Shown: positions 9,334 to 24,664 of the stretch, one piece after another
Layout: the number at the start of each line of letters is the position of its first letter
Position numbering within the stretch: the stretch's first letter is position 1
Origin: Thermoanaerobaculia bacterium
GTDB lineage: Bacteria; Acidobacteriota; Thermoanaerobaculia; Multivoradales; UBA5704
Length of the DNA: 52,228 nt
Assembly (NCBI GenBank): GCA_044226625.1
Contig: JBGAGQ010000045.1
Span: forward strand, 1-52,228
Direction of reading: 5' to 3'
The notes under the pieces: generated by a model
What the model was told of the DNA's origin: nothing
Database searches by the model: none
Seen by the model: the letters and a program-made list of their open reading frames with translations, nothing else
Program-made: the position numbers and the translations under genes

Positions 9334-10569
9334 TTACCCTCGATCAGTCCCCGATCGCTTTCGTCCCACCACCAAGACGTTCGCATACGGCGTCCCTTCA
9401 AAGAGCGGCGAGGTCTCGACGGTGAGTCCGCGCGCTTCGAGGAGACGACGCCATTCCTCAGCGCTTCGATAGTGGAAGCGCTGCGCGAAATCGCCGCGGG
9501 TGAGCGCCGAGAGACGCTCCTGGAATCTTGTCGCGAGGAACCGCCGGCCTCCGGCGGCGTCGGCGTCGCGAAGGAGGAGGACCCCTCCCGGCTCGAGCGC
9601 GGCCGCGATCCGGTCGAGCAGGCTCTCCTGCGCGGCGGCCGGTAGGTAGTGGAGGACGTCGAGCAGGAGCGCCACGCGGCAGCGGGGGAGCTCCACCGAT
9701 CGGAGGTCGGCGGTCGAGATTTCCGCCTCGGCCGAGAGCGCTTTGCGCGCTTGGGCCGCGATCTTTACCTTGCCTTCGAACCCGACGAGCTTCATCCCGC
9801 GGGGGAGCGGCCGGGCGCCGGGCGGGGTCGCCTCGGTTTCTTCGACGGCACGCAGCAGGGAGAAGAGGATGCCCCGGCCGCAGCCGAGATCCAGGACCAC
9901 GCCGGCTTCACCCGGATCGTCGGCCGGAGATTGATCCGCATCGAGCTCCAGCCCCCGTTCGATCAAGCCGAAGTAGAGCGGATCGTGGCGGAGCTTGCCG
10001 CGCACGAACTCCCAGGCGAACAGGCCGCAATCGAGGTAACGGCGCGACGCCGTGTCGATCAGGGCCTCGACCTCCGGGTGCCGGCGCGCGGAGACCGCCG
10101 CCTTGTAGGCGATGGCCGCTCCGATCAGGCCGAGCACGACGCCCAGGACGAGGGCGCCGACCAGCAGGTCGATCCCGAAACGGCCGAGCGGTAGCGACCG
10201 GATCTGCTCGGGATGGAGCGCGAGCGGCGGCGCGCCGCGCAGGAACCTCCCTACTTCCACCTCGGCGATGAACAGGAAGGGCGCGATGAACGGCAAGCTC
10301 ACGTTCGAGGCGAGGTAGGTCTTGAGCTGGCTCAAGCGGAGCAGGCGGGCCGCCAGGACGCAGAGAGGGAAATGGAAGCCGTAGAGCGGCGAACAGCCGA
10401 TCAGGAGCCCGATTCCGATCGCTGCGGCCTGGCGCGGAGGCGACTCCCCTTCGGTGCGCAGACGGACGTGCAGCTCGGCGAGCGTGCGTTGGAAACGAGC
10501 GAGGCGGCCGAGCGGCACCCGGGAGGGGGGTGGCGGCGCGACGTGCGGCGCGCGCGACGGCTCGCTCAT
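9334..10569 (-). CDS. DUF2062-like membrane domain fused to class I SAM-dependent methyltransferase
   Basis: N-terminal SPPRQAAAIGIGLLIGCSPLYGFH (DUF2062-like); FVRGKLRHDP; VLDLGCGRG motif I; LLDVLHYL; LEPGGVLLLRD. Confidence 0.8.
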   Translation of the reverse strand: MSEPSRAPHVAPPPPSRVPLGRLARFQRTLAELHVRLRTEGESPPRQAAAIGIGLLIGCSPLYGFHFPLCVLAARLLRLSQLKTYLASNVSLPFIAPFLFIAEVEVGRFLRGAPPLALHPEQIRSLPLGRFGIDLLVGALVLGVVLGLIGAAIAYKAAVSARRHPEVEALIDTASRRYLDCGLFAWEFVRGKLRHDPLYFGLIERGLELDADQSPADDPGEAGVVLDLGCGRGILFSLLRAVEETEATPPGARPLPRGMKLVGFEGKVKIAAQARKALSAEAEISTADLRSVELPRCRVALLLDVLHYLPAAAQESLLDRIAAALEPGGVLLLRDADAAGGRRFLATRFQERLSALTRGDFAQRFHYRSAEEWRRLLEARGLTVETSPLFEGTPYANVLVVGRKRSGTDRG

Positions 10570-11465
10570 CCAGCCTCACCTGCGCGCAGGGAGGCGGAGG
10601 ACGCCTGGCCGGGGCGGGGCAGGGCGAGCGCGCCGAGCCCCGCCCGTTCGATTTGATCGAGCAGGGTCGGCAGGGCCTCGAGCATCGCGGGCTGGCCGTC
10701 GCTCGTGCGAGCCGCCGAGCCGTCGTGGAGGAGGAGGACGTCGCCCGGCGAGAGGTTTCGGCCGAGACGTCGCGCGATCCGCGCCGGGTCGCGGACCACG
10801 GTGTCGAAAGCGCGTCGGGTCCAAGCGGCGAGGGAGAGCCCATGGCGCGCGAGGACCGACTCGAGCAGGACGCCGCGGAGACCTGCGGGGGCGCGGAACC
10901 AGGCTGGCTGCGCGCCGGACGCCGCGGCGATCGCCTTCTGGCCGGCGCTCACTTCGTGCTCGAGCGCTCGAGTTCCGCGCAGGGAGAAATCGTGGCGGTG
11001 GCGATAGGTGTGGTTCTCGACCGTGTGACCACGGCGGACGATCTCCCGCGCGAGTCGTGGATGCGCCTCCGCCCGCCGGCCGATCAGGAAGAAGCTCGCT
11101 TTCGCCCCTCGTTCGTCCAGTAGGTCGAGGACCCTGGGCGTCACCTCCGGATCGGGACCGTCGTCGAAAGTGAGGTAGACCCCCCGCTCCCCAGCTCCGC
11201 CGTGGAACCGGGTGAGATTCGGGCCGAGCAGGCGGCTCTGCGGGATGAGACCGGAGATGCCGATCGTGAGGTGGTTCGCGGCGAGGGCGCCCAGGATCCA
11301 CGGCCAACGCGCCGGGACCGCGGCGAGCGCGGCGACCGCGGCGGCATGGCTCGCCCAGGTGAAGCGGACGATCGCGCTCCGCCGGTACGGACGGGGCGCG
11401 TTGGGGCGGGGCAGCCCGCCAGGCGCAATCTCCTCCGCCGGGTCGAGGGTGTCCGGAGTCTGCAT
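10566..11465 (-). CDS. Polysaccharide deacetylase (CE4/NodB family) with N-terminal membrane segment
   Basis: YLTFDDGP, ASFFLIG, ENHTYRH, FRAPAG, DVLLLHD; start ATG 11465 (MQTPD). Confidence 0.88.
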   Translation of the reverse strand: MQTPDTLDPAEEIAPGGLPRPNAPRPYRRSAIVRFTWASHAAAVAALAAVPARWPWILGALAANHLTIGISGLIPQSRLLGPNLTRFHGGAGERGVYLTFDDGPDPEVTPRVLDLLDERGAKASFFLIGRRAEAHPRLAREIVRRGHTVENHTYRHRHDFSLRGTRALEHEVSAGQKAIAAASGAQPAWFRAPAGLRGVLLESVLARHGLSLAAWTRRAFDTVVRDPARIARRLGRNLSPGDVLLLHDGSAARTSDGQPAMLEALPTLLDQIERAGLGALALPRPGQASSASLRAGEAG

Positions 11466-11494
11466 GCCGCCGTCGGAATCGGAGACGCCGGGCT

Positions 11495-12970
11495 TCAAGG
11501 GGCCGGCTGTTCTCTTCGCGCGAGATCGAGGAGGGCGGCGCGATCGAGCTTGCCGCGCTCGGTGCGCGGCAGGGCGCGGACCAGCACCACGCTGCGCGGC
11601 ACCTTGTGCGCGGCCAGGCGGGGACGGCACCAGGCGAGCACCTGGTCGGTGGAGAGGGCGCCGTCGCCGCAGGCGATCACCGCGCGCAGTACCTCGCCTC
11701 CCGAAGCGGGGCGGGGCACGCCGAGGACGGCCACCTCGTGGACGCCGCGGAGCTCGCCGAGCACGCCTTCCACCTCGCGCGGGTTGACCTTCTTGCCCTT
11801 GATGTTCACCAGGTCGTCGACCCGGCCGAGCAGCGCGAGCTCACCGTCCTTGCACAGCGCCAGGTCGCTGGTTCGGTAAATCCCGGCGGCGAGGCGCTCG
11901 TCCGGCTCCGGGAGATAGCCGAGCGCGACGGCGGGAGATTTCACGGAGACCACCCCGGCCCCGCGCTCGTCCGGATCGAGCAGGCGGAGCGAGACGCCGT
12001 CGACCGGCGCGCCCACGGTGCCGCGCTCGCCGGCGCCCCCTTCGCGGTCGAAGCAAATCCCCCCGGACTCCGACGAGCCGTAGAACACGTGGATCGGCCG
12101 GCCGAACGTCTCGCGGAAGCGCGCCGCGGTCGCGGGCGGCAAAAGCGCTCCGGCGGTGAGCGCGAGGCGCACCGATCGCGGCCAGGCGGGTGGATGCGAG
12201 GTGCGGAGCAGCGCGTCGAGATACGCCGGCACGGTCGGGAAGATCGTCGCATCGCACGCCTCGGCCGCGGCGAGCGGCTCGACGGGAGAGTCTCCCTCCG
12301 GCAGGACGAGCACCTGGCCGCGCAGGAGCGCCGGCATCGCGAGGCTCGAAAGGCCGTAGGAATGGGTCATCGGCACGGTCGCGACGAAGGCGTCGTCGGG
12401 GCGGATGCCCATCGTCCGGCTGAGCTGCGCGTCGTCGGCGATCAGCGCTTCGGAGGGGGTGGCGATCCCGCGCGGCGCGCCGGTCGAGCCCGAGGTGACC
12501 TTGATCACGGCGAGATCCGGGAGGGTGGGGCGATCGGCTCGTTCCGCCCCGGCCTCGGGGTCCGGCGGGGCGGATGGAACCGGGCGGATCGAGAAGATCT
12601 CCGGTCCGGTGGGCCAGGCGCAGGGACACTCGAGGATCGCGGCCGCGCCCAGCCGCCCGGCGATCCGGAGCCGCTCGGCCTCCGGGGTGCCGGAGTCGAG
12701 CAGCAAGGCGGGACGTCCGAGGGTCCGGAGCGCGAGGAAGCCGGCGAGGAAGCCGGCGCCGTTCGCGGCGGCGAAAGCGATCGGACGCGGCTCCCCCTCT
12801 TCCGAGCGGTCGGCCGCCCCGGCTTCCTCCTCCAACCGCCGGACGACCCCCCGCGCGAGGTCCGCCACCGCGCCGCGATCCGTCCGGCGGGAGCGCGAGA
12901 CCACGATCGCGGCGCGCGGGTCGTCGAGATGGAGCCTTTCGAAGGCTCGGAGAATCGGATCGGTCGGCAT
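11495..12970 (-). CDS. Class I adenylate-forming enzyme (acyl-CoA/acyl-ACP ligase)
   Basis: TSGSTGAPRG, HSYGL, YGSSESGG, YRTSD, GRVDDLVNIKGKKV, LPRTERGK. Confidence 0.9.
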   Translation of the reverse strand: MPTDPILRAFERLHLDDPRAAIVVSRSRRTDRGAVADLARGVVRRLEEEAGAADRSEEGEPRPIAFAAANGAGFLAGFLALRTLGRPALLLDSGTPEAERLRIAGRLGAAAILECPCAWPTGPEIFSIRPVPSAPPDPEAGAERADRPTLPDLAVIKVTSGSTGAPRGIATPSEALIADDAQLSRTMGIRPDDAFVATVPMTHSYGLSSLAMPALLRGQVLVLPEGDSPVEPLAAAEACDATIFPTVPAYLDALLRTSHPPAWPRSVRLALTAGALLPPATAARFRETFGRPIHVFYGSSESGGICFDREGGAGERGTVGAPVDGVSLRLLDPDERGAGVVSVKSPAVALGYLPEPDERLAAGIYRTSDLALCKDGELALLGRVDDLVNIKGKKVNPREVEGVLGELRGVHEVAVLGVPRPASGGEVLRAVIACGDGALSTDQVLAWCRPRLAAHKVPRSVVLVRALPRTERGKLDRAALLDLARREQPAP

Positions 12971-13114
12971 GAACTCGAAACTTAGTTTAACAGGTAGGGA
13001 CCGGAGCCCCGCCCCGCGAGGGGGGCGGGAAGGCCCCGGGGGAAGTGGGCGGCCCCTGGAATGTACGCGCGCCGCCGCGCCGATGCTTCACATTCTGCGG
13101 CAGAATCCGCGACC

Positions 13115-16585: not shown

Positions 16586-18883
16586 ATGGCCGAACCGGTG
16601 AGCGCAACGAATCTGAGAGGGGGGAGCGCGGGACTGATCGTGGGCCTGCTGATCCTCGCCGCCTCGTTTGGCCTCGCCACGGCGCGGCTTCGCCCGCCCG
16701 CACCCAAGCCGGCCGACGCGCCGGAGGGCGAGTTCTCGGCCGGGCGCGCTCGCGCGGTGCTCACCGAGCTGGTTGGCAACGGCGAGCCGCACCCGCTGGG
16801 GAGCGCCGCCAACGCGCAGGTCCGCGAGCGGGTGCTGCTCGCGTTTCGTCGCCTGGGCTACGAGCCGGAGGTCGTGCCCGGTTTCGTCTGCCGTTCCGGG
16901 GGGCCCTGCGCCACGGTTCAGAACGTGGTCGCTCGGCTCGCCGGAAATTCCAAGCCGGGCGAGGCGATTCCGAAGGCGGTCATGCTGTCCGCCCATTACG
17001 ACTCGGTGCCGAGCGGACCGGGGGTCTCGGACGACCTCACCGGCGTGGCGGCGATCCTGGAGATCGCGCGCCAGATGAAGGCTCTGCCGCCGCCCGACAA
17101 CCCGGTGGTCTTCCTGATCGACGACGGCGAAGAGCCGGGGTTGCTCGGTGCCGAGGCTTTCGTCCGAACTCCGCTGGCCCGAGAGATCGGCGCGGTGATC
17201 AACCTCGAGGCACGGGGGACCTCCGGTCCGGGCCTGATGTTCCAGACCCATCATTGGAACGGCTCGTGGATCCCGCTGTTCGCCCGCGCGGTGTCGCGCC
17301 CGGTCGCCTCATCGGTCTTCATCACGCTCTACGAACGGCTGCCGAACGACACGGACTACACGGTCTTCCAGCGGGCGGGCATTCCGGGCTTCAACTTCGC
17401 CTTGATCGGTGACGCCGAGCGCTACCATCTTCCTCTCGACAACCTGGCCAACGCCTCCACCGCAAGCTTGCAGCACATGGGAGAGAGCGCCTCGGAGCTC
17501 GCCCGAGCGCTCGCCAAGGCCCCGCTCGTGATGCCCAAGCGCGCCCCGGCGGTCTTCTTCGACGTGTTATCGCTCGGGCTCGTCCGCTGGCCGGCCGCCG
17601 CGACCCTGCCGCTCGCGATCCTCGCGCTGGGCCTCGTCCTTTGGTCCTGCCGAAGGGTTTGGATCCGTCGCGCGGACGGAGTCGGAGGTACCCTGCTCGC
17701 GGCGCTCGTTGCACTCATCTCGATCGCCGCCGCCGTGGGGCTCTCTTTGGTCTTCGTCAACGCCCAGAAAGTGGCGGGTGGCCTCGCCGTCGCCTGGCCG
17801 GCGCAACCCGGTACGCTTCTCGTGGCGCTGGGCGCGCTGTCCGCTTTCGGCGTTCTCGGAGTCTCGTCCACCGTCGGCCGCGGTGGCCGCTCTGCGCGCG
17901 TCTGGACGGGGATCTGGCTCGTCTGGGGTGTCTTGGGGCTGGTCACCGGACTGATGCTTCCCGGATCGAGCTATTTGTTCATCGTGCCGGCCCTCGTCGC
18001 CGGCCTCGTCGGATCGGTCGTGGACCCGAGCCGTTCAGCCGTTGCGTCGCTGCTGCCGCTCGCCGTGGCGGGGGTCCTTTGGGCGCCGCTCGTGCTGTTG
18101 GTCTTCGCCGGCCTGGGCGCTCCGGGGATTCCGGCCCTCGCCGCCGTCATCGGCCTGTTCGCGATGCCGCTCGTGCCCCTCCTCGTCGGCACCCGCCGGC
18201 CGGGGCTCTGGGCGGGTGCTTTCGGCCTGGTCGCGGTCGTTGCGGCCTTTCTGGTGCCGGCGACCACGCGCGCCTCGGCGGAGGCGCCGAAGCGGCTTGC
18301 GATCTATTACCACCTCGATGCCGATGCGGGCACCGGTCGCTACGTCCTGCTCGGGGACTTGCGACGGGGCCAACCCCTGCCTCCCTCGCTCGCCGCCGCG
18401 GCTCCGTTCACCCTGGGGCAGACGTTTCCGTGGACCTCGCCGCAATCGCAAGGATTCGTGGCACCCGCTCCGGCCGTCGAGCTCGTGCCGCCGGCGTTCG
18501 AAGTGCTCGCCGACGAGACGCGGCCGGACGGCCGCCATCTGTCGCTGCGGCTCTCCTCTCCGCGCGGCGCGCCGGTGCTCCGGTTGCAGGTCCCGGCGTC
18601 CGCCGAGGTCCGCACCGCCCGGATGGAGGACGAGGAGATCCCCAAACAACCGGACGGCAAGCTGGCTCGCCAGGGGGATTGGCTCGCGTTCCAATGCCTC
18701 TCGATGCCCCCGGAAGGGATCGTCCTCGAGCTCGTGTTGGGCGCGACGGCGCCTTTCGACGCCTACATCGCCGACCGTTCGCTCGGGTTGATCCCGGCCG
18801 CCCGGACGGTGGCGGCCGCCCGCACGCCGGAGTGGATCGCCGATGGCGACTCGATCGTGGTCAGTCGCAAAGTCCACATCTGA
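16586..18883 (+). CDS. M28 family metallopeptidase with multi-pass membrane region (ERMP1-like)
   Basis: LSAHYDSVP, GVSDDLTGVA, DGEEPGLLGA, INLEARG, PNDTDYTVF, YHLPLD; followed by about 8 hydrophobic helices. Confidence 0.9.
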   Translation: MAEPVSATNLRGGSAGLIVGLLILAASFGLATARLRPPAPKPADAPEGEFSAGRARAVLTELVGNGEPHPLGSAANAQVRERVLLAFRRLGYEPEVVPGFVCRSGGPCATVQNVVARLAGNSKPGEAIPKAVMLSAHYDSVPSGPGVSDDLTGVAAILEIARQMKALPPPDNPVVFLIDDGEEPGLLGAEAFVRTPLAREIGAVINLEARGTSGPGLMFQTHHWNGSWIPLFARAVSRPVASSVFITLYERLPNDTDYTVFQRAGIPGFNFALIGDAERYHLPLDNLANASTASLQHMGESASELARALAKAPLVMPKRAPAVFFDVLSLGLVRWPAAATLPLAILALGLVLWSCRRVWIRRADGVGGTLLAALVALISIAAAVGLSLVFVNAQKVAGGLAVAWPAQPGTLLVALGALSAFGVLGVSSTVGRGGRSARVWTGIWLVWGVLGLVTGLMLPGSSYLFIVPALVAGLVGSVVDPSRSAVASLLPLAVAGVLWAPLVLLVFAGLGAPGIPALAAVIGLFAMPLVPLLVGTRRPGLWAGAFGLVAVVAAFLVPATTRASAEAPKRLAIYYHLDADAGTGRYVLLGDLRRGQPLPPSLAAAAPFTLGQTFPWTSPQSQGFVAPAPAVELVPPAFEVLADETRPDGRHLSLRLSSPRGAPVLRLQVPASAEVRTARMEDEEIPKQPDGKLARQGDWLAFQCLSMPPEGIVLELVLGATAPFDAYIADRSLGLIPAARTVAAARTPEWIADGDSIVVSRKVHI

Positions 18884-18901
18884 AACGCTCAAACCCCGCC
18901 T

Positions 18902-18929
18902 GGGGGACGCCGAACCGTCCCCCTTTTCT
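18902..18929 (+). terminator. Rho-independent terminator after the M28 peptidase
   Basis: GGGGGACG-ccgaac-CGTCCCCC followed by TTTTCT. Confidence 0.75.
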
Positions 18930-19016
18930 CAAAGCAAGACACTGTTAGGTGAGGATCGGTAAGCCGCCCACGCCCGGGGCGGCATTCTTGTGCTCTCGAC
19001 CGAGGTGTCCTTCAAC

Positions 19017-20369
19017 ATGACATTGCCACTCCGCGCCGATTCCGGCGCTTACGACGTCCTGGGCGTCGGGTTCGGCCCGTCGAACCTCGCTCTCGCGGTT
19101 GCGCTCGAAGAAGCGCCCGAGGCGTCTTCTCTGTCCTCTCTCTTCCTCGAGACGAAGCCCGGTTGTGCCTGGCATCCGGGGATGTTGCTCGAGGAATCGA
19201 CCATCCAGATCTCCGTGCTCAAGGATCTCGCGACGATTCGGAACCCCCAGAGCCGCTTCACCTTCTTGAGCTACTTGAAGGAGAAGGGGCGCCTGTTCGA
19301 GTTCCTGAACCTGCGCGACCTGTTCCCGAGCCGCATCGAGTTCAACGACTACCTGTCCTGGGTCGCCGAGGGGCTCTCCGATCGAGTGCGCTGGGGGACC
19401 GAGGTCACCGCGGTCCATCCCGTGCGCGGAGAGGATGCGGACACCGTGGAGCTCCTGCGGGTCGAAGCGCGGGACCTCGCGACCGGCGAGCGTCGGGAAG
19501 TTCTCGCGCGGAACCTCGTGCTGGCGACCGGCGGTGTGCCCGCGATCCCGTCGCCGCTTCGGCTGGTCCCGGGGGGGCGGGCGATCCACACGGTCGAGTT
19601 CATGCAGCGGATTCGCTCCGATTTTCCCGATCGGAACGCGCGCTATCGGTTCGCCGTCGTGGGCGCGGGGCAGAGCGGCGCGGAGCTGTTCAGCTACCTG
19701 CTCACCCACTACCCGAACGCCGAAGTGACGGCGACGCTGCGCAAGTTCTCGTACAAGCCGGTCGACGACAGCCATTTCACCAACGAGATCTTCTTCCCGA
19801 GCAAGGTCGACTGGCTTTTCTCTCTCTCCGACGAGAAGCGCGCCCGGGTGCTCGACATGTGCCGCGACGTCAATTACGCGGTGGTCGACGCGCCGCTCAT
19901 CCGACAGATCTACCGTCAGCTCTACGACGAGCGGGTCGAAGGGAAAGACCGCGCGAAGATCCTGCCGTTCCTCGAGCTTCGAGAGATCGAGGAGCGGGGG
20001 ACTACCGTGCGCGCGCGCTTCCACAACTCGCTCGAGGAGCGCGATCACGAGCTCGAGGTCGACGCCTTGATCGTCGCGACCGGGTATCACTGGCCTTCGG
20101 ACCACCCGTTGCTCGCCGAGCTCGCGGTTCATCTCCTGCGCGACCCGGCGCCCGGCGGTGGTTACGAGTACCGGATCCGCCGCGACTATCGGGTTGAGTC
20201 GGATCCGAGCTTCCTGCCCGGCGTCTACCTGCAGGGATTCTCCGAGCGCCGGCACGGCGCGAGCGAAACGGTCCTGTCCCTGCTGCCGATCCGCGCCGGC
20301 AACATCCTCGATTCCCTGGTCGAAGCCCGCCGCCCTTCCGAGGTCGACAGGGAAGCGGTCGCGGTCTAA
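19017..20369 (+). CDS. Flavin-dependent N-hydroxylating monooxygenase (L-ornithine N5-/L-lysine N6-oxygenase, PvdA/SidA/KtzI/IucD family)
   Basis: GVGFGPSNLALA (FAD), WHPGMLL, QISVLKDL, VGAGQSGAE (NADPH), DDSHFTNEIF, NYAVVD, LIVATGY, HGASETVLS. Confidence 0.93.
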   Translation: MTLPLRADSGAYDVLGVGFGPSNLALAVALEEAPEASSLSSLFLETKPGCAWHPGMLLEESTIQISVLKDLATIRNPQSRFTFLSYLKEKGRLFEFLNLRDLFPSRIEFNDYLSWVAEGLSDRVRWGTEVTAVHPVRGEDADTVELLRVEARDLATGERREVLARNLVLATGGVPAIPSPLRLVPGGRAIHTVEFMQRIRSDFPDRNARYRFAVVGAGQSGAELFSYLLTHYPNAEVTATLRKFSYKPVDDSHFTNEIFFPSKVDWLFSLSDEKRARVLDMCRDVNYAVVDAPLIRQIYRQLYDERVEGKDRAKILPFLELREIEERGTTVRARFHNSLEERDHELEVDALIVATGYHWPSDHPLLAELAVHLLRDPAPGGGYEYRIRRDYRVESDPSFLPGVYLQGFSERRHGASETVLSLLPIRAGNILDSLVEARRPSEVDREAVAV

Positions 20370-20388
20370 AGCGACGGAGACCCCGACC

Positions 20389-22479
20389 GTGCATCTTCAG
20401 AGGCTCGATCCGGCGAAGTTCGAAAGCGAATACGGCATCCAGATCCAGATGCTCTACCCCTGGGAAGGGGTGGTGGTGCCGCCGTTCGGCTCGGCCTGGG
20501 CGGTCGTTCCGCCGCTCGGCTCGACCAAGCACCATACGCATCAGGAAGGGGAGACCTTTTTCGTCGCCCGAGGTCGCGGAACGATGCGCGTGGGCGATGA
20601 CACGTCCGAGATCGGTTCGGGCGATGTGATCTTCCTGCCGCCGTTCGATCAGCACACGCTCACCAACACGTCCGAGACCGAGGACCTGCTCTTTCTCACC
20701 TGTTGGTGGGAGGACCGGAAGCTCTGGGCCGACGCGGCGCCGAAGGCGGACGGTGCGACCGAGCGGCCGGCCCGTACGCTGGTCTCGGCGGCGCCGCCGA
20801 CGCCGAACGGCGACCTGCACCTCGGCCATCTGTCGGGTCCGTATCTCGCCGGAGACGTCATCGCGCGCTACCTCCGCCTGCGCGGCGTCGAGGCTCGCTA
20901 CGTCTTCGGCTCGGACGACAACCAGAGCTACGTGAAGACCAACGGCGAGCGGATCGGCCTGGGGCCGAACGAGGCGGCCGACTACCTCGCGGGTGAGATC
21001 GCCAAGACCCTCGAGGCGGCCGAGATCGAGCTCGACAAGTTCACCCGGCCGAACGCCTCCCCCTACCACCGCGACCTGGTGCAGGCGTTCTTCCGGCGCC
21101 TGTACGAATCCGGCCAGCTGGTCGAGCGCGAAGCGCCGTCACCGTATTGCCCGCGTTGCGACCTCTATCTCTATGAGGCGCACATCCGCGGCGGCTGCCC
21201 GCACTGCGGCGCGATGTCCGGGGGCAACTGCTGCGAGGAATGCTGCCGCCCGAACGACTGTATCGACCTGATCGATCCCGTGTGTACCCATTGCGGCGGC
21301 ACGCCGGAGTCGCGCGGCTACAAGCGGCTCTATTTCCCGCTGTCGCGCCATGCCGCGACGCTCTCCGAGCTGCGCCTCACGACCGCGATGAACCCGCGCC
21401 TGCGCTCGCTCTGCGAACAGGTGACGGAGGCGGGGCTGCCCGACATCGCGGTGACCCATCCCGCCGACTGGGGGATTCCGGTGCCGGTCGAGGGGTACGA
21501 GGCGCAGCGAATCTGGGTCTGGTGCGAGATGGCGCCCCGTTATCTGGCCTACGCCCGCGAGGTCTGCGACGTCGCGGGAGTCCCCGCGGCGGAAGCGTCC
21601 TGGGAGCGTTTCTGGAAATCGCCCGAGGCGAGCGTGGTCCAGTGCTTCGGCTCCGACAACGGTTTCTTCTACGGCCTGCTCGTACCGGCGATGCTTAGGG
21701 CATTCGATCCCGCGCTTCGGCTTCCCGAGGCGCTGGTGATGAACGAGTTCTATCGCCTGGACGGCAAGAAGTTCTCGACCAGCCGCCAGCACGCGATCTG
21801 GGGGCGGGAGATGGTCGCCGACGTACCCGCCGACGAGATGCGGTTCTATCTCGGCTGGAGCGCTCCGGAGGTCGAGGGAACCAACTTCACCCGGACCGAG
21901 TTCGAAGAGACCATCGAGCGCGAGGTGCGCGGAGGTTTCGGCGGCTGGCTCCGTTCGCTCGGCCAGCGGATCGAGGCGCGCCACGGCGGGCTCGTGCCCT
22001 GGACCGGAGACTGGACGGACGACCATCGGCGGTTCTATCGCCGGATCGAGCAGCTTTCGGCCGAGATCGCGGAAGGGTACGAGCCGGGGACTTTCTCGCT
22101 CCAACGGGCCACCCGTGGGCTCGCCGCGCTGGTGCGGGAGGCGCGGCGGTTCGCCGCCGCCGAGAGCGGCTGGCAGAGGGTCGAGGCGCGCGGCGAGGAG
22201 CGGCGCACCGGGACCGCTCTCGAGCTGCTCGCGGCCAAACAGCTGGCGATCCTCGCGAGCCCTCTAATGCCCAGGTTCGGGGTGGATCTTTGGCGCGCGC
22301 TCGGATACGAGACGCCGCTCTCGGCGCAGCGATTCGAAGCGCGGCCCGATTGGGTCCCCGGAGGGCAGCGGATCGGCGATCTCGTCGGAGCGCTACCGCG
22401 ACGCCAGCCCCGATCCCAGGAGTCTCCGGACGCGGCCGTGCCGGCCGCCGTCGAGGGAGGACCAGGCGCTTCCGCCTAG
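20389..22479 (+). CDS. Cupin / methionyl-tRNA-synthetase-like fusion (hydrazine synthetase type, Spb40/PyrN/Tri28 architecture)
   Basis: GTG 20389 after GGAGA; N-terminal cupin (HHTHQEGETF...GDVIFLPPFDQH); MetRS-like core PTPNGDLHLGH, GSDDNQSY, CxxC knuckles (CPRC, CPHC, CEEC, CTHC), DWGIPVP, KKFSTSR. Confidence 0.88.
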   Translation: MHLQRLDPAKFESEYGIQIQMLYPWEGVVVPPFGSAWAVVPPLGSTKHHTHQEGETFFVARGRGTMRVGDDTSEIGSGDVIFLPPFDQHTLTNTSETEDLLFLTCWWEDRKLWADAAPKADGATERPARTLVSAAPPTPNGDLHLGHLSGPYLAGDVIARYLRLRGVEARYVFGSDDNQSYVKTNGERIGLGPNEAADYLAGEIAKTLEAAEIELDKFTRPNASPYHRDLVQAFFRRLYESGQLVEREAPSPYCPRCDLYLYEAHIRGGCPHCGAMSGGNCCEECCRPNDCIDLIDPVCTHCGGTPESRGYKRLYFPLSRHAATLSELRLTTAMNPRLRSLCEQVTEAGLPDIAVTHPADWGIPVPVEGYEAQRIWVWCEMAPRYLAYAREVCDVAGVPAAEASWERFWKSPEASVVQCFGSDNGFFYGLLVPAMLRAFDPALRLPEALVMNEFYRLDGKKFSTSRQHAIWGREMVADVPADEMRFYLGWSAPEVEGTNFTRTEFEETIEREVRGGFGGWLRSLGQRIEARHGGLVPWTGDWTDDHRRFYRRIEQLSAEIAEGYEPGTFSLQRATRGLAALVREARRFAAAESGWQRVEARGEERRTGTALELLAAKQLAILASPLMPRFGVDLWRALGYETPLSAQRFEARPDWVPGGQRIGDLVGALPRRQPRSQESPDAAVPAAVEGGPGASA

Positions 22480-22621
22480 GTTCCGAGTCGAATCCAAAAC
22501 TTTATGCTCCGAGATAGATCCAAGATCGAATCGAGAGCCGTACCTACAAGGAGCCGGGCTTGGAATCAGGCAGTATCGAGCTGTCCGAGTCTACCGCGCC
22601 TGCGCTGGGAGAAAGACGACG

Positions 22622-23071
22622 ATGTCCGAAAACCTGTTCGGCAGCGCTTCGCCGGAAGAAGCGTCCTGGGGCTACCAACTCATCCTCGATTGTTTCGGCT
22701 GCGACGTGGACACCTGCTGCGACCTCGAAAAAGGCTACGAATTTCTCGATAAGATCTGCGTCCACCTTCATATGACGAAGCAAACGCAACCCTATATCTT
22801 CAAGACGTGTGAAACGACGTTCCCTGGTAAACCGGGTTACAGCGGCTGGATTCCGATCATCGAGAGCGGCATCCAGATCCACACTTCGGCGAACAACCAC
22901 TTCATCAGCATCGACGTCTACTCGTGCAAGGTGTTCGACCTCGACGAGACGGTGGCTTTCGTTCAGAAGTGGTTCAACCCGAAGCGGATCGACACCCAGT
23001 TCTTCCACCGGGGCAAGGGCTACCTGCAGAAGTCGTTCGCCCAGGACGTGGCGGTCGGCGCCTCGCACTAA
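22622..23071 (+). CDS. Pyruvoyl-dependent decarboxylase, AdoMetDC/SpeD fold, substrate unknown
   Basis: WGYQLILDCFGC, GYSGWIPIIES (E81-S82 autocleavage site), GIQIHT, ISIDVYSCK; SD-like GGGAGA upstream. Confidence 0.85.
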   Translation: MSENLFGSASPEEASWGYQLILDCFGCDVDTCCDLEKGYEFLDKICVHLHMTKQTQPYIFKTCETTFPGKPGYSGWIPIIESGIQIHTSANNHFISIDVYSCKVFDLDETVAFVQKWFNPKRIDTQFFHRGKGYLQKSFAQDVAVGASH

Positions 23072-23194
23072 GGCGGCCCGCCTGCGTCAAAAGGATCGGG
23101 CGCCGCGCGAGCGGCGCCCGGAACCACGCAATCGAGATGGGACCGGATCGGGTTGGCGTGTGCCTTCCGGTTCGCGCCGAACCGGTTCTCGCCT

Positions 23195-24664
23195 CTACCG
23201 CTCCACCCAGTAGTTCGGCGCCTCTTTCGTGATCACCACGTCGTGGGCGTGCCCTTCCTTCAATCCCGCCGGGGAGATCCGGACGAAGCGCGCCTTGACG
23301 CGCAGCTCCTCGACCGTCGCGCAGCCGGCGAGGCCCATGCCTGAACGCAGGCCTCCGGTCAGCTGAGGAAGAAGCTGATGCACGGTCCCTTTGTGCGGCA
23401 CCATCCCCTCGATCCCCTCGGGAACCAGCTTCGATAGGCTGCCGCTCCCCTCCTGGAAGTAGCGCTCCGCGCTGCCGCGGGCCATGGCGGACAGCGATCC
23501 CATGCCCCGATAGGCCTTGTAAGTTCGCCCCTGGTAGAGAATCGTCTCGCCCGGGCTCTCCTCGGTGCCGGCGAGCAGCGAGCCGATCATCACGGAATGG
23601 GCGCCTGCCGCGAGCGCCTTGGTGAGGTCGCCCGAGAACTTGATGCCGCCGTCGGCGATCACCGGTACGCCGCTCTCCTCGGCGGCCCGGGCGCAATCCT
23701 GGATGGCGGTCACCTGAGGGACGCCCGCGCCGGTGACCACGCGGGTGGTGCAGATGCTTCCCGGACCGATCCCCACCTTCACGGCGTCGACGCCGCGCTC
23801 GATCAGCGCCCGGGTCCCTTCGGCGGTCGCGACGTTGCCGACGACCAATCGAACTTCCGGGAAACGTTCGCGCAGCTTGGCGGCGGCGTCGAGGACGCCC
23901 TGGCTGTGGGCATGGGAAGAGTCGAGCACCAGCAGGTCGGCCTTCGCTTTGACGAGCGCCGCCGCGCGTTCGAGGAAATCGCCCGACGAGCCGACCGCGG
24001 CCCCGACGCGGAGACGTCCCAGCTCGTCCTTGCAGGCGTTCGGGTACTGCATCATCTTCTGGATGTCCTTGACGGTGATCAGGCCCTTCAGGTTTCCCGC
24101 GCCGTCGACGACCAGAAGCTTCTCGATCCGATGGCGGTGGAGGAGCGTCTTCGCCTGCTCGAGCGTCGTCCCTTCGGGCACCGTGATCAGGTTCTCGCGC
24201 GTCATCAGATCGCCGATCCGGCGATCGAGGTCCTCCTCGAAGCGGAGGTCGCGGTTGGTCAGGATGCCCACCAGATGACCGGCCGAGTCGGTGACCGGAA
24301 CGCCGGAGATCTTGAAATGGGCCATCAGCGTATGGGCGTCGCGGATCGACTGGTCGGGACCGATCGTCACCGGATCGACGATCATGCCGGCCTCCGAGCG
24401 CTTCACCTTGTCGACCTCTTCGGCCTGCAGCTCGACCGGCAGGTTCTTATGGACGATTCCGATCCCGCCCTCTTGCGCGAGCGCGATCGCGAGGCGCGAT
24501 TCGGTCACGGTGTCCATCGCCGCTGAGAGGATCGGGATGTTGAGCGTGATGCCGCGGCAGACGACCGTCTTCAAGTCCACGTCGTTGGGATGGGTCGAGG
24601 ACAGCCCCGGAACGAGGGAGACGTCGTCGAAGGTCAGCGCGAGCCTGGGTTCTTCGGAAAACAT
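23195..24664 (-). CDS. guaB: IMP dehydrogenase with CBS pair
   Basis: [49 protein letters not shown]. Confidence 0.97.

Follow-up and report, generated by a model that had tools for sequence, protein, structure and literature searches.

The window analysed here is a 52,228-nucleotide stretch of DNA from a soil-dwelling Thermoanaerobaculia bacterium (GenBank assembly GCA_044226625.1, contig JBGAGQ010000045.1), on whose forward strand three consecutive genes encode an N-hydroxylase (positions 19017-20369), a didomain hydrazine synthetase (HS; 20389-22479) and a SpeD-fold decarboxylase (22622-23071). As a tentative overall explanation, we propose that the three genes form one operon, that this operon is one arm of a dispersed hydrazine pathway, and that the pathway probably feeds a nonribosomal peptide synthetase (NRPS). 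The novelty lies in the decarboxylase clade, not in the chemistry of N-N bond formation. A first-pass annotation had reported three same-strand open reading frames, a 19-nt gap, cupin, HLGH and KFSTS motifs and a SpeD-fold gene, all of which we confirmed at these positions. Its suggestion of an acidobacterial host was borne out as well, the relatives being named as Thermoanaerobaculia, Acidobacteriota and Holophagales metagenome-assembled genomes.

A predicted hydrazine synthetase beside an amino-acid N-hydroxylase

The HS is a single 696-aa open reading frame that joins a Cupin_2 domain (residues 38-103, 45.1 bits) to a tRNA-synt_1g domain (residues 131-519, 269.6 bits). Within the Zn-cupin (about nt 20500-20697), the motif HTHQEGE begins at residue 49 (20533-20553), and the metal set H-x-H-x3-E...H is made up of H49, H51, E55 and H89. 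The pattern HHEH was seen in 144 of 147 aligned HS relatives. The same four residues match the ligand positions of the stand-alone cupin RHS1, whose Zn ligands are D63/H65/E69/H103 (PMC8664883), including the essential Glu (PyrN E56). In the methionyl-tRNA synthetase (MetRS)-like domain, which would form the aminoacyl-AMP, the motifs HxGH and KFST(G/S) stand in place of the HIGH and KMSKS of MetRS. They read HLGH (20818-20829, residue 144) and KFSTS (21769-21783, residue 461) here, and are given as 147-HLGH-150 and 458-KFSTG-462 for PyrN in the available text of its description (bioRxiv 10.1101/2025.08.22.671884).

The protein was placed by ranking bit scores against all PDB chains. Its best matches were 9VQ4 (324 bits) and 9L8V (323 bits), which that preprint identifies as the C-terminal part (PyrN-C) of PyrN, the hydrazine synthetase of pyrazomycin biosynthesis. 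The best true MetRS, that of Pyrococcus abyssi, reached 239 bits and the E. coli enzyme 127 bits. The HS also failed every NCBIfam MetRS equivalog cut-off, its best score being 300 bits versus 587. A separate MetRS is encoded on contig C69 (hereafter G000 denotes the source genome, G plus a number another sampled genome, L plus a number a locus of a relative, and C plus a number a contig of G000). This protein carries HIGH, KISKS and a tRNA-binding tail, scores 782 bits versus a cut-off of 598, and shares 27% identity with the HS along 351 aa. The earlier view of the N-hydroxylase and the cupin/MetRS-like protein as a bona fide pair is thus upheld by domains, motifs, the PyrN-C score (324 versus at most 239 bits for any MetRS) and the separate MetRS. 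On sequence grounds we assign the fusion to the Spb40/PyrN hydrazine synthetase family, not to MetRS, and predict that it forms an N-N bond.

The eight-residue pocket code of the HS reads APDQWMNY. It is identical at six of eight positions to the glycine code TPDQWMNH listed for Spb40 and AzsN in the available text of PMC12376268, with A and Y instead of T and H at positions 1 and 8. Exactly TPDQWMNH was found in these columns in 9 of the 147 aligned relatives, which validated the column mapping. Other codes, as quoted from the published work, are SFVQALNR for PyrN (Glu) and SADQWYGH for ThzN (Thr). Since the code of the window HS lies near the glycine code and is unlike that of PyrN, a small donor amino acid is predicted, most likely with glycine as first choice. 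Comparison with PyrN, which acts with PyrM in pyrazomycin biosynthesis (PyrN-C structures 9L8V, 9VQ4, 9VQJ and 9VR2), pointed the same way. The printed alignment shows conservation of the second Zn knuckle Cys set, of D420/N421 and of the motif positions. In contrast to PyrN, which takes Glu as donor, the window HS has W/M and Y at the two Arg-side positions, residues that would fill the pocket and so point to a small substrate; Cys281 stands in place of Glu284 of PyrN.

Three HS paralogs (L020, L022, L023) were present in G365, a genome of the same family and a sister genus. Of the three, the only one to adjoin an N-hydroxylase, a decarboxylase and an oxidase is the most divergent (41% identical to the query, with the aberrant pocket AP--WGDR). 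Another lies in an open frame of 1,376 aa that lacks the cupin.

The gene upstream of the HS encodes a 450-aa N-hydroxylase (PF13434, 357.6 bits). Against solved relatives it scored 328 bits with the Lys N6-monooxygenase MbtG, 298 with KtzI and SidA and 283 with PvdA, but only 131-161 bits with the diamine hydroxylases DfoA, DesB and putrescine N-hydroxylase. In SidA, residues K107, N293, N323 and S469 hold the alpha-carboxylate and alpha-amine of L-Orn, and these residues are missing in DesB (PMC8009421). All four were kept in the window protein as K69, N256, N286 and S421 (HMMER alignment to 4B63), and a Val was found where DesB has Asp. By these residues and scores, the enzyme is classed as an N-hydroxylase of the Lys/Orn amino-acid type, not of the diamine type. 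We had considered the decarboxylase as a supplier of putrescine or cadaverine to the N-hydroxylase; given the four retained alpha-amino-acid anchors and the low diamine-hydroxylase scores, this is now unlikely. One metagenomic relative (P0057, 1154 aa) consists of an N-hydroxylase (PF13434) fused to a cupin/MetRS-like HS that is 60% identical to the query HS.

A predicted pyruvoyl decarboxylase of a distinct clade

The third gene encodes a 149-aa protein that scored 55.8 bits with PF02675 (cut-off 25). An AlphaFold model built on 42 relatives had a pLDDT of 84.6, and the top Foldseek matches of this model were 2III, 1TMI and 1VR7, with TM scores of 0.81-0.86 by target. The residues reported as essential in the S-adenosylmethionine decarboxylase (AdoMetDC) of T. 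maritima are S63, H68 and C83 (available text of PMC10407285). E81-S82, H87 and C102 were invariant in the 42 relatives, and the ES, HT and C aligned with the A. aeolicus AdoMetDC. This alignment predicts self-cleavage between Glu81 and Ser82, with the Ser codon at 22865-22867. Model and alignment together indicate that the third protein is a class 1b AdoMetDC-like pyruvoyl decarboxylase, for which self-processing is predicted.

None of three marks of a bona fide AdoMetDC was found. The Pro after HTW, stated in the available text of PMC10407285 to be completely conserved in bona fide AdoMetDC, is missing, the window motif being HTSAN instead of HTWPE. The NCBIfam AdoMetDC equivalog TIGR03330 gave 42.7 bits for a cut-off of 75.65. 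Finally, the genome encodes no canonical SpeE partner, its only homolog being a fused major facilitator superfamily/spermidine synthase (MFS/SpdSyn) type. Within the clade conservation was strong. Among the 42 relatives, which were 59-93% identical to the query, 55 positions were invariant, whereas identity was about 25% to canonical SpeD and 34% to phage homologs. A sample of 401 genomes of the phylum contained three with the decarboxylase at E <= 1e-71 and one with a 41% relative; the other 51 matches in it showed about 20-32% identity at E 1e-7 to 1e-3. The decarboxylase is also better conserved than the neighbouring proteins: in L001-L004 identity was 90-93% for the decarboxylase, 81-85% for the HS and 76-80% for the N-hydroxylase. 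By these identities the decarboxylase is set apart from ordinary SpeD as a distinct, tight clade.

The genome also encodes a canonical SpeA (910 bits) and an agmatinase (212 bits), so that the decarboxylase is not needed for putrescine. SpeDC, by comparison, is marked by genomes that lack a canonical ornithine or arginine decarboxylase (ODC, ADC), and SpeA is present here. The central region of the window protein contains Q85, T88, F94 and Y100, and the residues diagnostic of SpeDC in that region are a Gln, a Thr, a Phe and a Tyr; this compares residue types, not positions. A tblastn search of 50,697 phage records matched just three, with 34% identity, and no characterised ODC/ADC homolog was among these. 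Among longer proteins, a Rosetta-stone search for fusions gave two matches, neither informative: a degenerate copy without the ES site and a fusion to a topoisomerase-I-like domain.

Besides the catalytic Cys, members of the clade share a conserved cluster of cysteines near the N terminus, DCFGC-x3/4-CC(D/N)L (residues C24, C27, C32, C33, C63 and C102). The cluster is missing in the aligned A. aeolicus AdoMetDC and could be a metal or redox site.

The decarboxylase lies between the HS and an oxidase in relatives

A metagenome scan with the decarboxylase alignment returned 63 loci, which collapsed to 53 groups at 97% nucleotide identity; 49 groups fell in the clade at 60% identity or more. In seven of eight related genome loci, the decarboxylase gene was directly 3' of the HS gene. 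Clustering of neighbouring open frames recovered the HS in 34 loci, a 450-aa convergent protein in 23, an M28-family peptidase in 21, the N-hydroxylase in 19 and large AMP-binding proteins in 18. The 450-aa protein, encoded convergently right after the decarboxylase, is a DAO-family FAD oxidoreductase (PF01266, 165.8 bits), called the oxidase below. According to Pfam, the large AMP-binding proteins were condensation-adenylation-thiolation (C-A-T) NRPS modules, multi-module NRPSs and an NRPS-polyketide synthase (PKS) hybrid with a fatty-acyl-AMP-ligase (FAAL)-like start.

The same partners were detected by tblastn across the 49 groups: the HS in 19, the oxidase in 16, an NRPS in at least 10 and at least one of these in 27. 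The other 22 groups were empty of all three and were mostly short contigs. Twelve groups had flanks of 4 kb or more on both sides; of these, eight had the HS, one the oxidase only and three none. The oxidase was also encoded with the cassette in six sampled genomes (G365, G631, G571, G495, G551, G647), and the genes stayed together in rearranged layouts (L043, L053, G551, G495). Judged by this synteny, the usual unit in relatives is an N-hydroxylase, an HS and a decarboxylase facing an oxidase, often beside an NRPS. It is the known hydrazine cassette with one extra gene.

A search of the source genome with the sister-genus oxidase as query gave a single match among 26 candidates scored, at C6:17850-19181 (63% identity, E 3.6e-164; PF01266, 175 bits). 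It adjoins the TruA gene, as in G365 (L020) and in L029. In G365, one piece of DNA carries TruA and the oxidase, followed on the other strand by the genes for the decarboxylase, the HS, the N-hydroxylase and the M28 peptidase. In the window's genus (G000, G266, G515, L001-L005, L025), guaB abuts the decarboxylase gene, in the slot of the relatives' FAD oxidoreductase. Since the set is intact in G365 and the C6 oxidase still lies by TruA, we conclude that a rearrangement between the decarboxylase and oxidase genes split an ancestral locus in the window's genus.

The first-pass annotation had noted no oxidase or NRPS nearby and had read the locus as a minimal three-gene route. The former holds among the genes annotated at about 9.3-34.1 kb of the window, where no oxidase, NRPS or PKS was found; as a trait of the pathway it is not supported, the oxidase being on C6 and adjacent in relatives. 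The minimal route itself is not supported either, in view of the oxidase and NRPS counts in relatives and the oxidase ortholog retained on C6.

Two further observations concern these neighbourhoods. Directly after the relocated oxidase, C6:19266-20648 (L089:11267-12649) encodes a 461-aa PhyH-family dioxygenase, which may serve in tailoring or have no connection with the pathway; next come genes for an aspartokinase-homoserine dehydrogenase fusion and a pyridoxal-phosphate enzyme. In one sub-lineage, comprising L061, L064, L066 and G571 (L104), the N-hydroxylase and HS genes are separated by a single C-A-T NRPS module, a MerR-like gene and a gene for a protein of 200-257 aa that matches no Pfam family.

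Decarboxylase and HS co-occur within one order

In a sample of 401 genomes of the class, the decarboxylase was found in 18 genomes, the HS in 15 and both in 14, with four genomes having the decarboxylase only and one the HS only; two best HS candidates were scored per genome, so that absence of the HS stands for not found with this query. All carriers belonged to one order. In family f1, 8 of 13 genomes had the decarboxylase and 5 the HS, and both genes were found in 1/3 genomes of f4, 1/3 of f98, 3/9 of f100, 2/2 of f101 and 2/2 of f102. These carriers are kin and the counts represent few independent events.

The two genes were adjacent in 10 of the 14 genomes with both. The decarboxylase of G495 is flanked by the oxidase on one side and an NRPS on the other. 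That of G551 is beside the N-hydroxylase, with the oxidase about 1.1 kb off its other side. In G679 and G691 the decarboxylase gene and an NRPS gene diverge, and the HS is encoded on different contigs. The synteny check proposed in the first-pass annotation, namely whether the decarboxylase accompanies the pair in other genomes, therefore came out positive in the related genome loci and class genomes and in the 8 of 12 well-flanked metagenome loci with an HS; its counter-case, a decarboxylase that never co-occurs with the pair, is contradicted by the 14 genomes with both. These observations support the view that the SpeD-fold gene is not a chance neighbour of the HS.

No SpeD-type match was present in 15 of 15 same-order genomes outside f1, among those listed from the phylum sample. 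Because most of the order is without a SpeD homolog, the decarboxylase gene counts as accessory to this family of clusters. The co-occurrence pattern also shows that it can be parted from N-N bond formation as such.

Proposed pathway

We propose a route of four steps. In the first, the N-hydroxylase would hydroxylate the side-chain amine of free L-Lys or L-Orn to N6-OH-Lys or N5-OH-Orn, as its conserved substrate anchors suggest. In the second, the MetRS-like domain of the HS would form the aminoacyl-AMP of a small amino acid, most probably glycine, and esterify the N-OH, in line with its family and motifs. The Zn-cupin would then rearrange the O-aminoacyl hydroxylamine to an N,N'-disubstituted hydrazine, N-(carboxymethylamino)-Lys/Orn. 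N-hydroxylation and HS coupling are, from the sequences, very likely.

In the third step, suggested by synteny in relatives, the DAO-family oxidoreductase would oxidise one C-N bond and free a hydrazine building block. The cut could be Spb39-like, releasing hydrazinoacetic acid, or Apy10-like, keeping the hydrazine on the Lys/Orn side. That the oxidase takes part in the pathway is probable.

The fourth step is the newest and least certain. Here the neofunctionalised SpeD-fold decarboxylase would remove the alpha-carboxylate of a Lys/Orn-derived intermediate, a type of substrate that we favour because every known SpeD-fold substrate is an alpha-amino acid that bears a cationic tail and because the gene usually lies between those of the HS and the oxidase. 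The substrate would most likely be the N,N'-disubstituted conjugate, with the N-hydroxy amino acid as the alternative; both are more plausible than a free hydrazino acid, and the conjugate is preferred because hydrazone formation with the pyruvoyl group is closed to it. Decarboxylation would yield a hydrazine of the diamine type, to be used later on, probably by one of the numerous NRPS lines. Action of the decarboxylase on a pathway intermediate is something we suggest only with reservation, and the decarboxylated, polyamine-like hydrazine that the first-pass annotation had named is a possible product. A bolder version seems unlikely to us as it stands: that the decarboxylase is the first pyruvoyl enzyme dedicated to an N-N pathway and acts on a Lys/Orn intermediate that is hydrazine-linked or N-hydroxylated. 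Its product would be an N-aminoalkyl hydrazine unit, the hydrazine counterpart of a polyamine, which Thermoanaerobaculia-type NRPSs would build into a new class of N-N lipopeptides.

Points against the pathway and alternative explanations

Several points weigh against the dispersed pathway as set out above. The pocket columns behind the donor prediction were mapped by hand from the printed PyrN-C alignment and then carried by MAFFT over the 147 relatives. Only family and position underlie the assignment of the oxidase, its nearest named relatives being pipecolate oxidase-like (128 bits, below cut-off) and glycine oxidase. Pyruvoyl and other carbonyl cofactors react with free hydrazines and aminooxy compounds, which tells against a step on a free -NH-NH2; the title of PDB entry 3DZ5, among the Foldseek matches, is that of an aminooxy adduct. 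The decarboxylase is the sole PF02675 match in the genome and a fused MFS/spermidine synthase homolog is present, so that a role as AdoMetDC has some probability.

The NRPS link within the source genome is weak. The C6 oxidase is 1.7 kb from a 5,214-aa open frame encoding a FAAL-NRPS. We dropped this NRPS as an ortholog of those beside the decarboxylase in relatives, whose best matches scatter over C109, C74, C113, C28 and others. The genome of about 6.6 Mb is exceptionally rich in NRPS genes, with 96 condensation-domain matches on at least 16 contigs and open frames of up to about 6,800 aa. Given these 96 matches and the scatter, we claim only retention of the oxidase, not a partnership with the C6 NRPS. 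NRPS-rich contigs of G000 include C3, C6, C26, C28, C31, C67, C95, C98, C108, C109, C113 and C133.

The distribution of the genes also holds exceptions. In G659 and G675 the decarboxylase is beside NRPS genes and the HS was not found among the two best candidates per genome. In G727 and G759 an intact decarboxylase stands alone, with N-hydroxylase, HS and oxidase missing from a slot (MnmA - [N-hydroxylase-HS] - decarboxylase - [oxidase]) that is filled in congeners. Conversely, G647 has N-hydroxylase, HS and oxidase in a row without a decarboxylase. Within 10 kb of the decarboxylase in L031, L047 and L050, no HS, N-hydroxylase, oxidase or NRPS was found. The genomes with only one of HS and decarboxylase (G647 and the four with the decarboxylase) indicate that the three genes are not an obligate unit.

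These exceptions bear on the main rival explanation, which we consider unlikely but still the strongest of the alternatives: that the decarboxylase turns a common basic amino acid, such as Orn, Arg or Lys, into an amine for an NRPS, e.g., a chain-terminating nucleophile. The N-hydroxylase, HS and unlinked oxidase would then make a hydrazino acid as usual, and the two modules would share clusters since both feed the same product family. The genomes with a decarboxylase by an NRPS and the HS not found (G659, G675) or located elsewhere (G495, G679, G691) fit this explanation, as do the loci in which the decarboxylase adjoins an NRPS or NRPS-PKS (L046, L068, L070, L035, L072) and the decarboxylase-free order of G647. 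All characterised neofunctionalised SpeD homologs, in the available text of PMC10407285 and PMC9992855, act on plain L-Orn or L-Arg. As a lead only, an Atlas feature search placed nearest to the decarboxylase AdoMetDC-family clusters of Omnitrophota, viruses and Chloroflexota, taxa of characterised ODC-type homologs. However, the gene is mostly sandwiched between those of the HS and the oxidase rather than placed beside an NRPS, and in G727 and G759, which retain it, no NRPS lies within 10 kb. Putrescine is already provided for by SpeA and agmatinase, and the clade is about as distant from other SpeD homologs as those are from each other.

It is improbable that the three genes are a self-contained route without an oxidase, ending in the N-N-linked conjugate or its decarboxylated form. 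The operon does end at the decarboxylase in the window's genus (the window, G266, G515, L001-L005, L025), where it is bounded by guaB, and the 14 kb annotated around it, at about 9.3-34.1 kb, lack an oxidase, NRPS or PKS. Yet one oxidase ortholog was kept in the genome at 63% identity, where a gene without function would be expected to decay. The oxidase is adjacent in the sister genus (G365, L020) and in most relatives, and the three genes proved separable in other genomes.

The weakest reading, very doubtful in our view, is that the SpeD-fold gene is the AdoMetDC or polyamine enzyme of the lineage, inherited beside the HS by gene order and feeding the fused MFS/spermidine synthase homolog: it is the only PF02675 match, aminopropyltransferase-like domains occur on C126 and C83 (the C126 protein being an NF037959 fused MFS/SpdSyn, 117 bits versus a cut-off of 40), and G727 and G759 keep intact copies without N-hydroxylase, HS or oxidase, but the AdoMetDC Pro is missing, the equivalog score falls short, the gene is too patchy (18 of 401 class genomes, and none of the 15 listed same-order genomes outside f1), its family-level distribution mirrors that of the HS, and it stays with the HS, the oxidase or an NRPS through several rearrangements.

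Comparison with known systems

The dispersed hydrazine pathway that we favour largely follows established logic. In the available text of PMC11705231, PMC13755311 and PMC12376268, Spb38/Spb39/Spb40 (s56-p1) and AzsL/M/N (azaserine) are a Lys N6-hydroxylase, a FAD oxidase and a cupin/MetRS-like HS that together give hydrazinoacetic acid. Like them, the window system has an amino-acid N-hydroxylase, a didomain HS with Zn-cupin and HxGH/KFST motifs, a pocket sharing 6/8 residues with the glycine code and, in relatives and on C6, a DAO-family oxidoreductase. Unlike these systems of Actinomycetota, it is found in an acidobacterial host, its relatives carry a SpeD-fold decarboxylase between the HS and the oxidase, and the oxidase is unlinked in the window's genus. 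For Apy9/Apy10 (actinopyridazinone), an HS and an oxidase that cuts on the donor amino-acid side, the donor being lost as a keto acid, are described in the available text of PMC11705231. Such a cut would leave here an Orn/Lys-like hydrazinyl amino acid, a plausible decarboxylase substrate; no decarboxylase is described for Apy in that text. FuzD-G (fuscazines; available text of PMC13149037) comprise an N-monooxygenase, a cupin, a flavin oxidoreductase and a MetRS-like enzyme, the same enzyme set as the window operon once the C6 oxidase is counted. They differ in having separate cupin and MetRS-like parts, ATP-grasp ligase partners and, as described there, no decarboxylase.

The known SpeD-fold substrates are AdoMet, L-Arg and L-Orn, SpeDC being an L-Orn and SpeDA an L-Arg decarboxylase (available text of PMC10407285 and PMC9992855). 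The window enzyme resembles SpeDC and SpeDA in its class 1b fold, its Ser/His/Cys processing triad, the loss of the AdoMetDC Pro and the absence of a canonical SpeE partner. Whereas those enzymes occur in polyamine clusters of genomes without canonical ADC or ODC, the window clade occurs in hydrazine and NRPS clusters, in a genome with SpeA and agmatinase.

The hydroxylase/HS/oxidase logic is well known from Spb38-40, AzsL-N, Tri26-28, PyrM/N and FuzD-G, and the literature, in the parts available, estimates more than 1,200 HS genes. HS enzymes that take N-hydroxy-putrescine or N-hydroxy-1,3-diaminopropane are also reported in such parts. Matsuda et al. (ChemBioChem, 2024) reportedly distinguished 401 HS in 13 clades. 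Our literature search found no description of a pyruvoyl or SpeD-fold partner of an HS and none of an acidobacterial HS cluster; the main HS phylogeny and supplementary data lay outside this search, and an earlier mention is possible.

Boundaries and flanking genes of the operon

The HS gene starts with GTG, 19 nt past the hydroxylase stop, with GGAG 9 nt 5' of the GTG. The 142-nt spacer that separates it from the decarboxylase gene (22480-22621) has a lower GC content, 0.55, and the decarboxylase ATG is preceded by GGGAGA at 8-9 nt. In all three genes the GC content at third codon positions was 0.81-0.86, the same as in flanking genes, and GC by codon position fits that of native coding genes. 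Upstream, a terminator-like hairpin with a T-run (18902-18923, forward strand; 8-bp stem, 7 GC pairs) lies between the M28 gene and the operon. Downstream, a GC-rich hairpin (23097-23120, reverse strand; 10 GC pairs) lies between the decarboxylase gene and the convergent guaB (23195-24664, reverse strand), an IMP dehydrogenase gene (NCBIfam TIGR01302, 613 bits versus a cut-off of 481.5) that forms a housekeeping boundary. The bounds drawn by the first-pass annotation, the hairpin at 18902 and convergent guaB, were thus recovered. The hairpins alone carry little weight, as the overall terminator scan was at shuffle level (4 sites versus 3.1 +/- 2.1). A leader RNA or riboswitch was considered and dropped: an Rfam scan of 18700-23300 returned nothing at E <= 1, and no sigma-70-like site was seen.

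The other genes annotated at about 9.3-34.1 kb include those for a sortase, a DinB-family protein, a DUF4287 protein, a stand-alone AMP-binding enzyme, a BNR/sortilin protein and a beta-eliminating lyase. These genes are not biosynthetic partners of the operon. The AMP-binding enzyme lies together with a DUF2062-methyltransferase fusion at 9334-13087 (reverse strand), about 6-10 kb upstream of the operon. The enzyme clusters with adenylation domains of the NRPSs that neighbour the decarboxylase in relatives.

The gene immediately upstream (16586-18883, forward strand) encodes an M28-family peptidase with a long C-terminal membrane region (PF04389, 140.6 bits). An M28 gene is 5' of the N-hydroxylase gene in L001-L005, L025 and G365, and homologs with 35-47% identity recur near the decarboxylase in L031, L033, L037, L045, L061, L064, L076 and L077. 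It was also seen near the decarboxylase in G571, in varied orders and orientations and even without an HS (L031, L047). The peptidase is a recurrent cassette neighbour and may be part of the system, of its export or of processing.

Implications

HS enzymes are sought as biocatalysts, and decarboxylation may be needed to get past amino-acid-derived products, according to the available text of PMC11705231. The window and its relatives present a dedicated, strongly conserved AdoMetDC-fold decarboxylase that is apparently attached to HS cassettes, in a phylum from which hardly any natural products have been characterised. Should the decarboxylase be only a parallel amine supplier, the locus would be an ordinary new member of the known cassette in an unusual host. 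If it acts on pathway intermediates, SpeD-fold chemistry would extend past AdoMet, Arg and Orn, and the pathway would offer a route to alkyl-hydrazine or polyamine-like N-N units. PF02675 beside a cupin/MetRS gene would then serve as a genome-mining handle for a new family of NRPS products. Were the substrate hydrazine-linked, the enzyme would show how a carbonyl-cofactor enzyme tolerates hydrazine chemistry.

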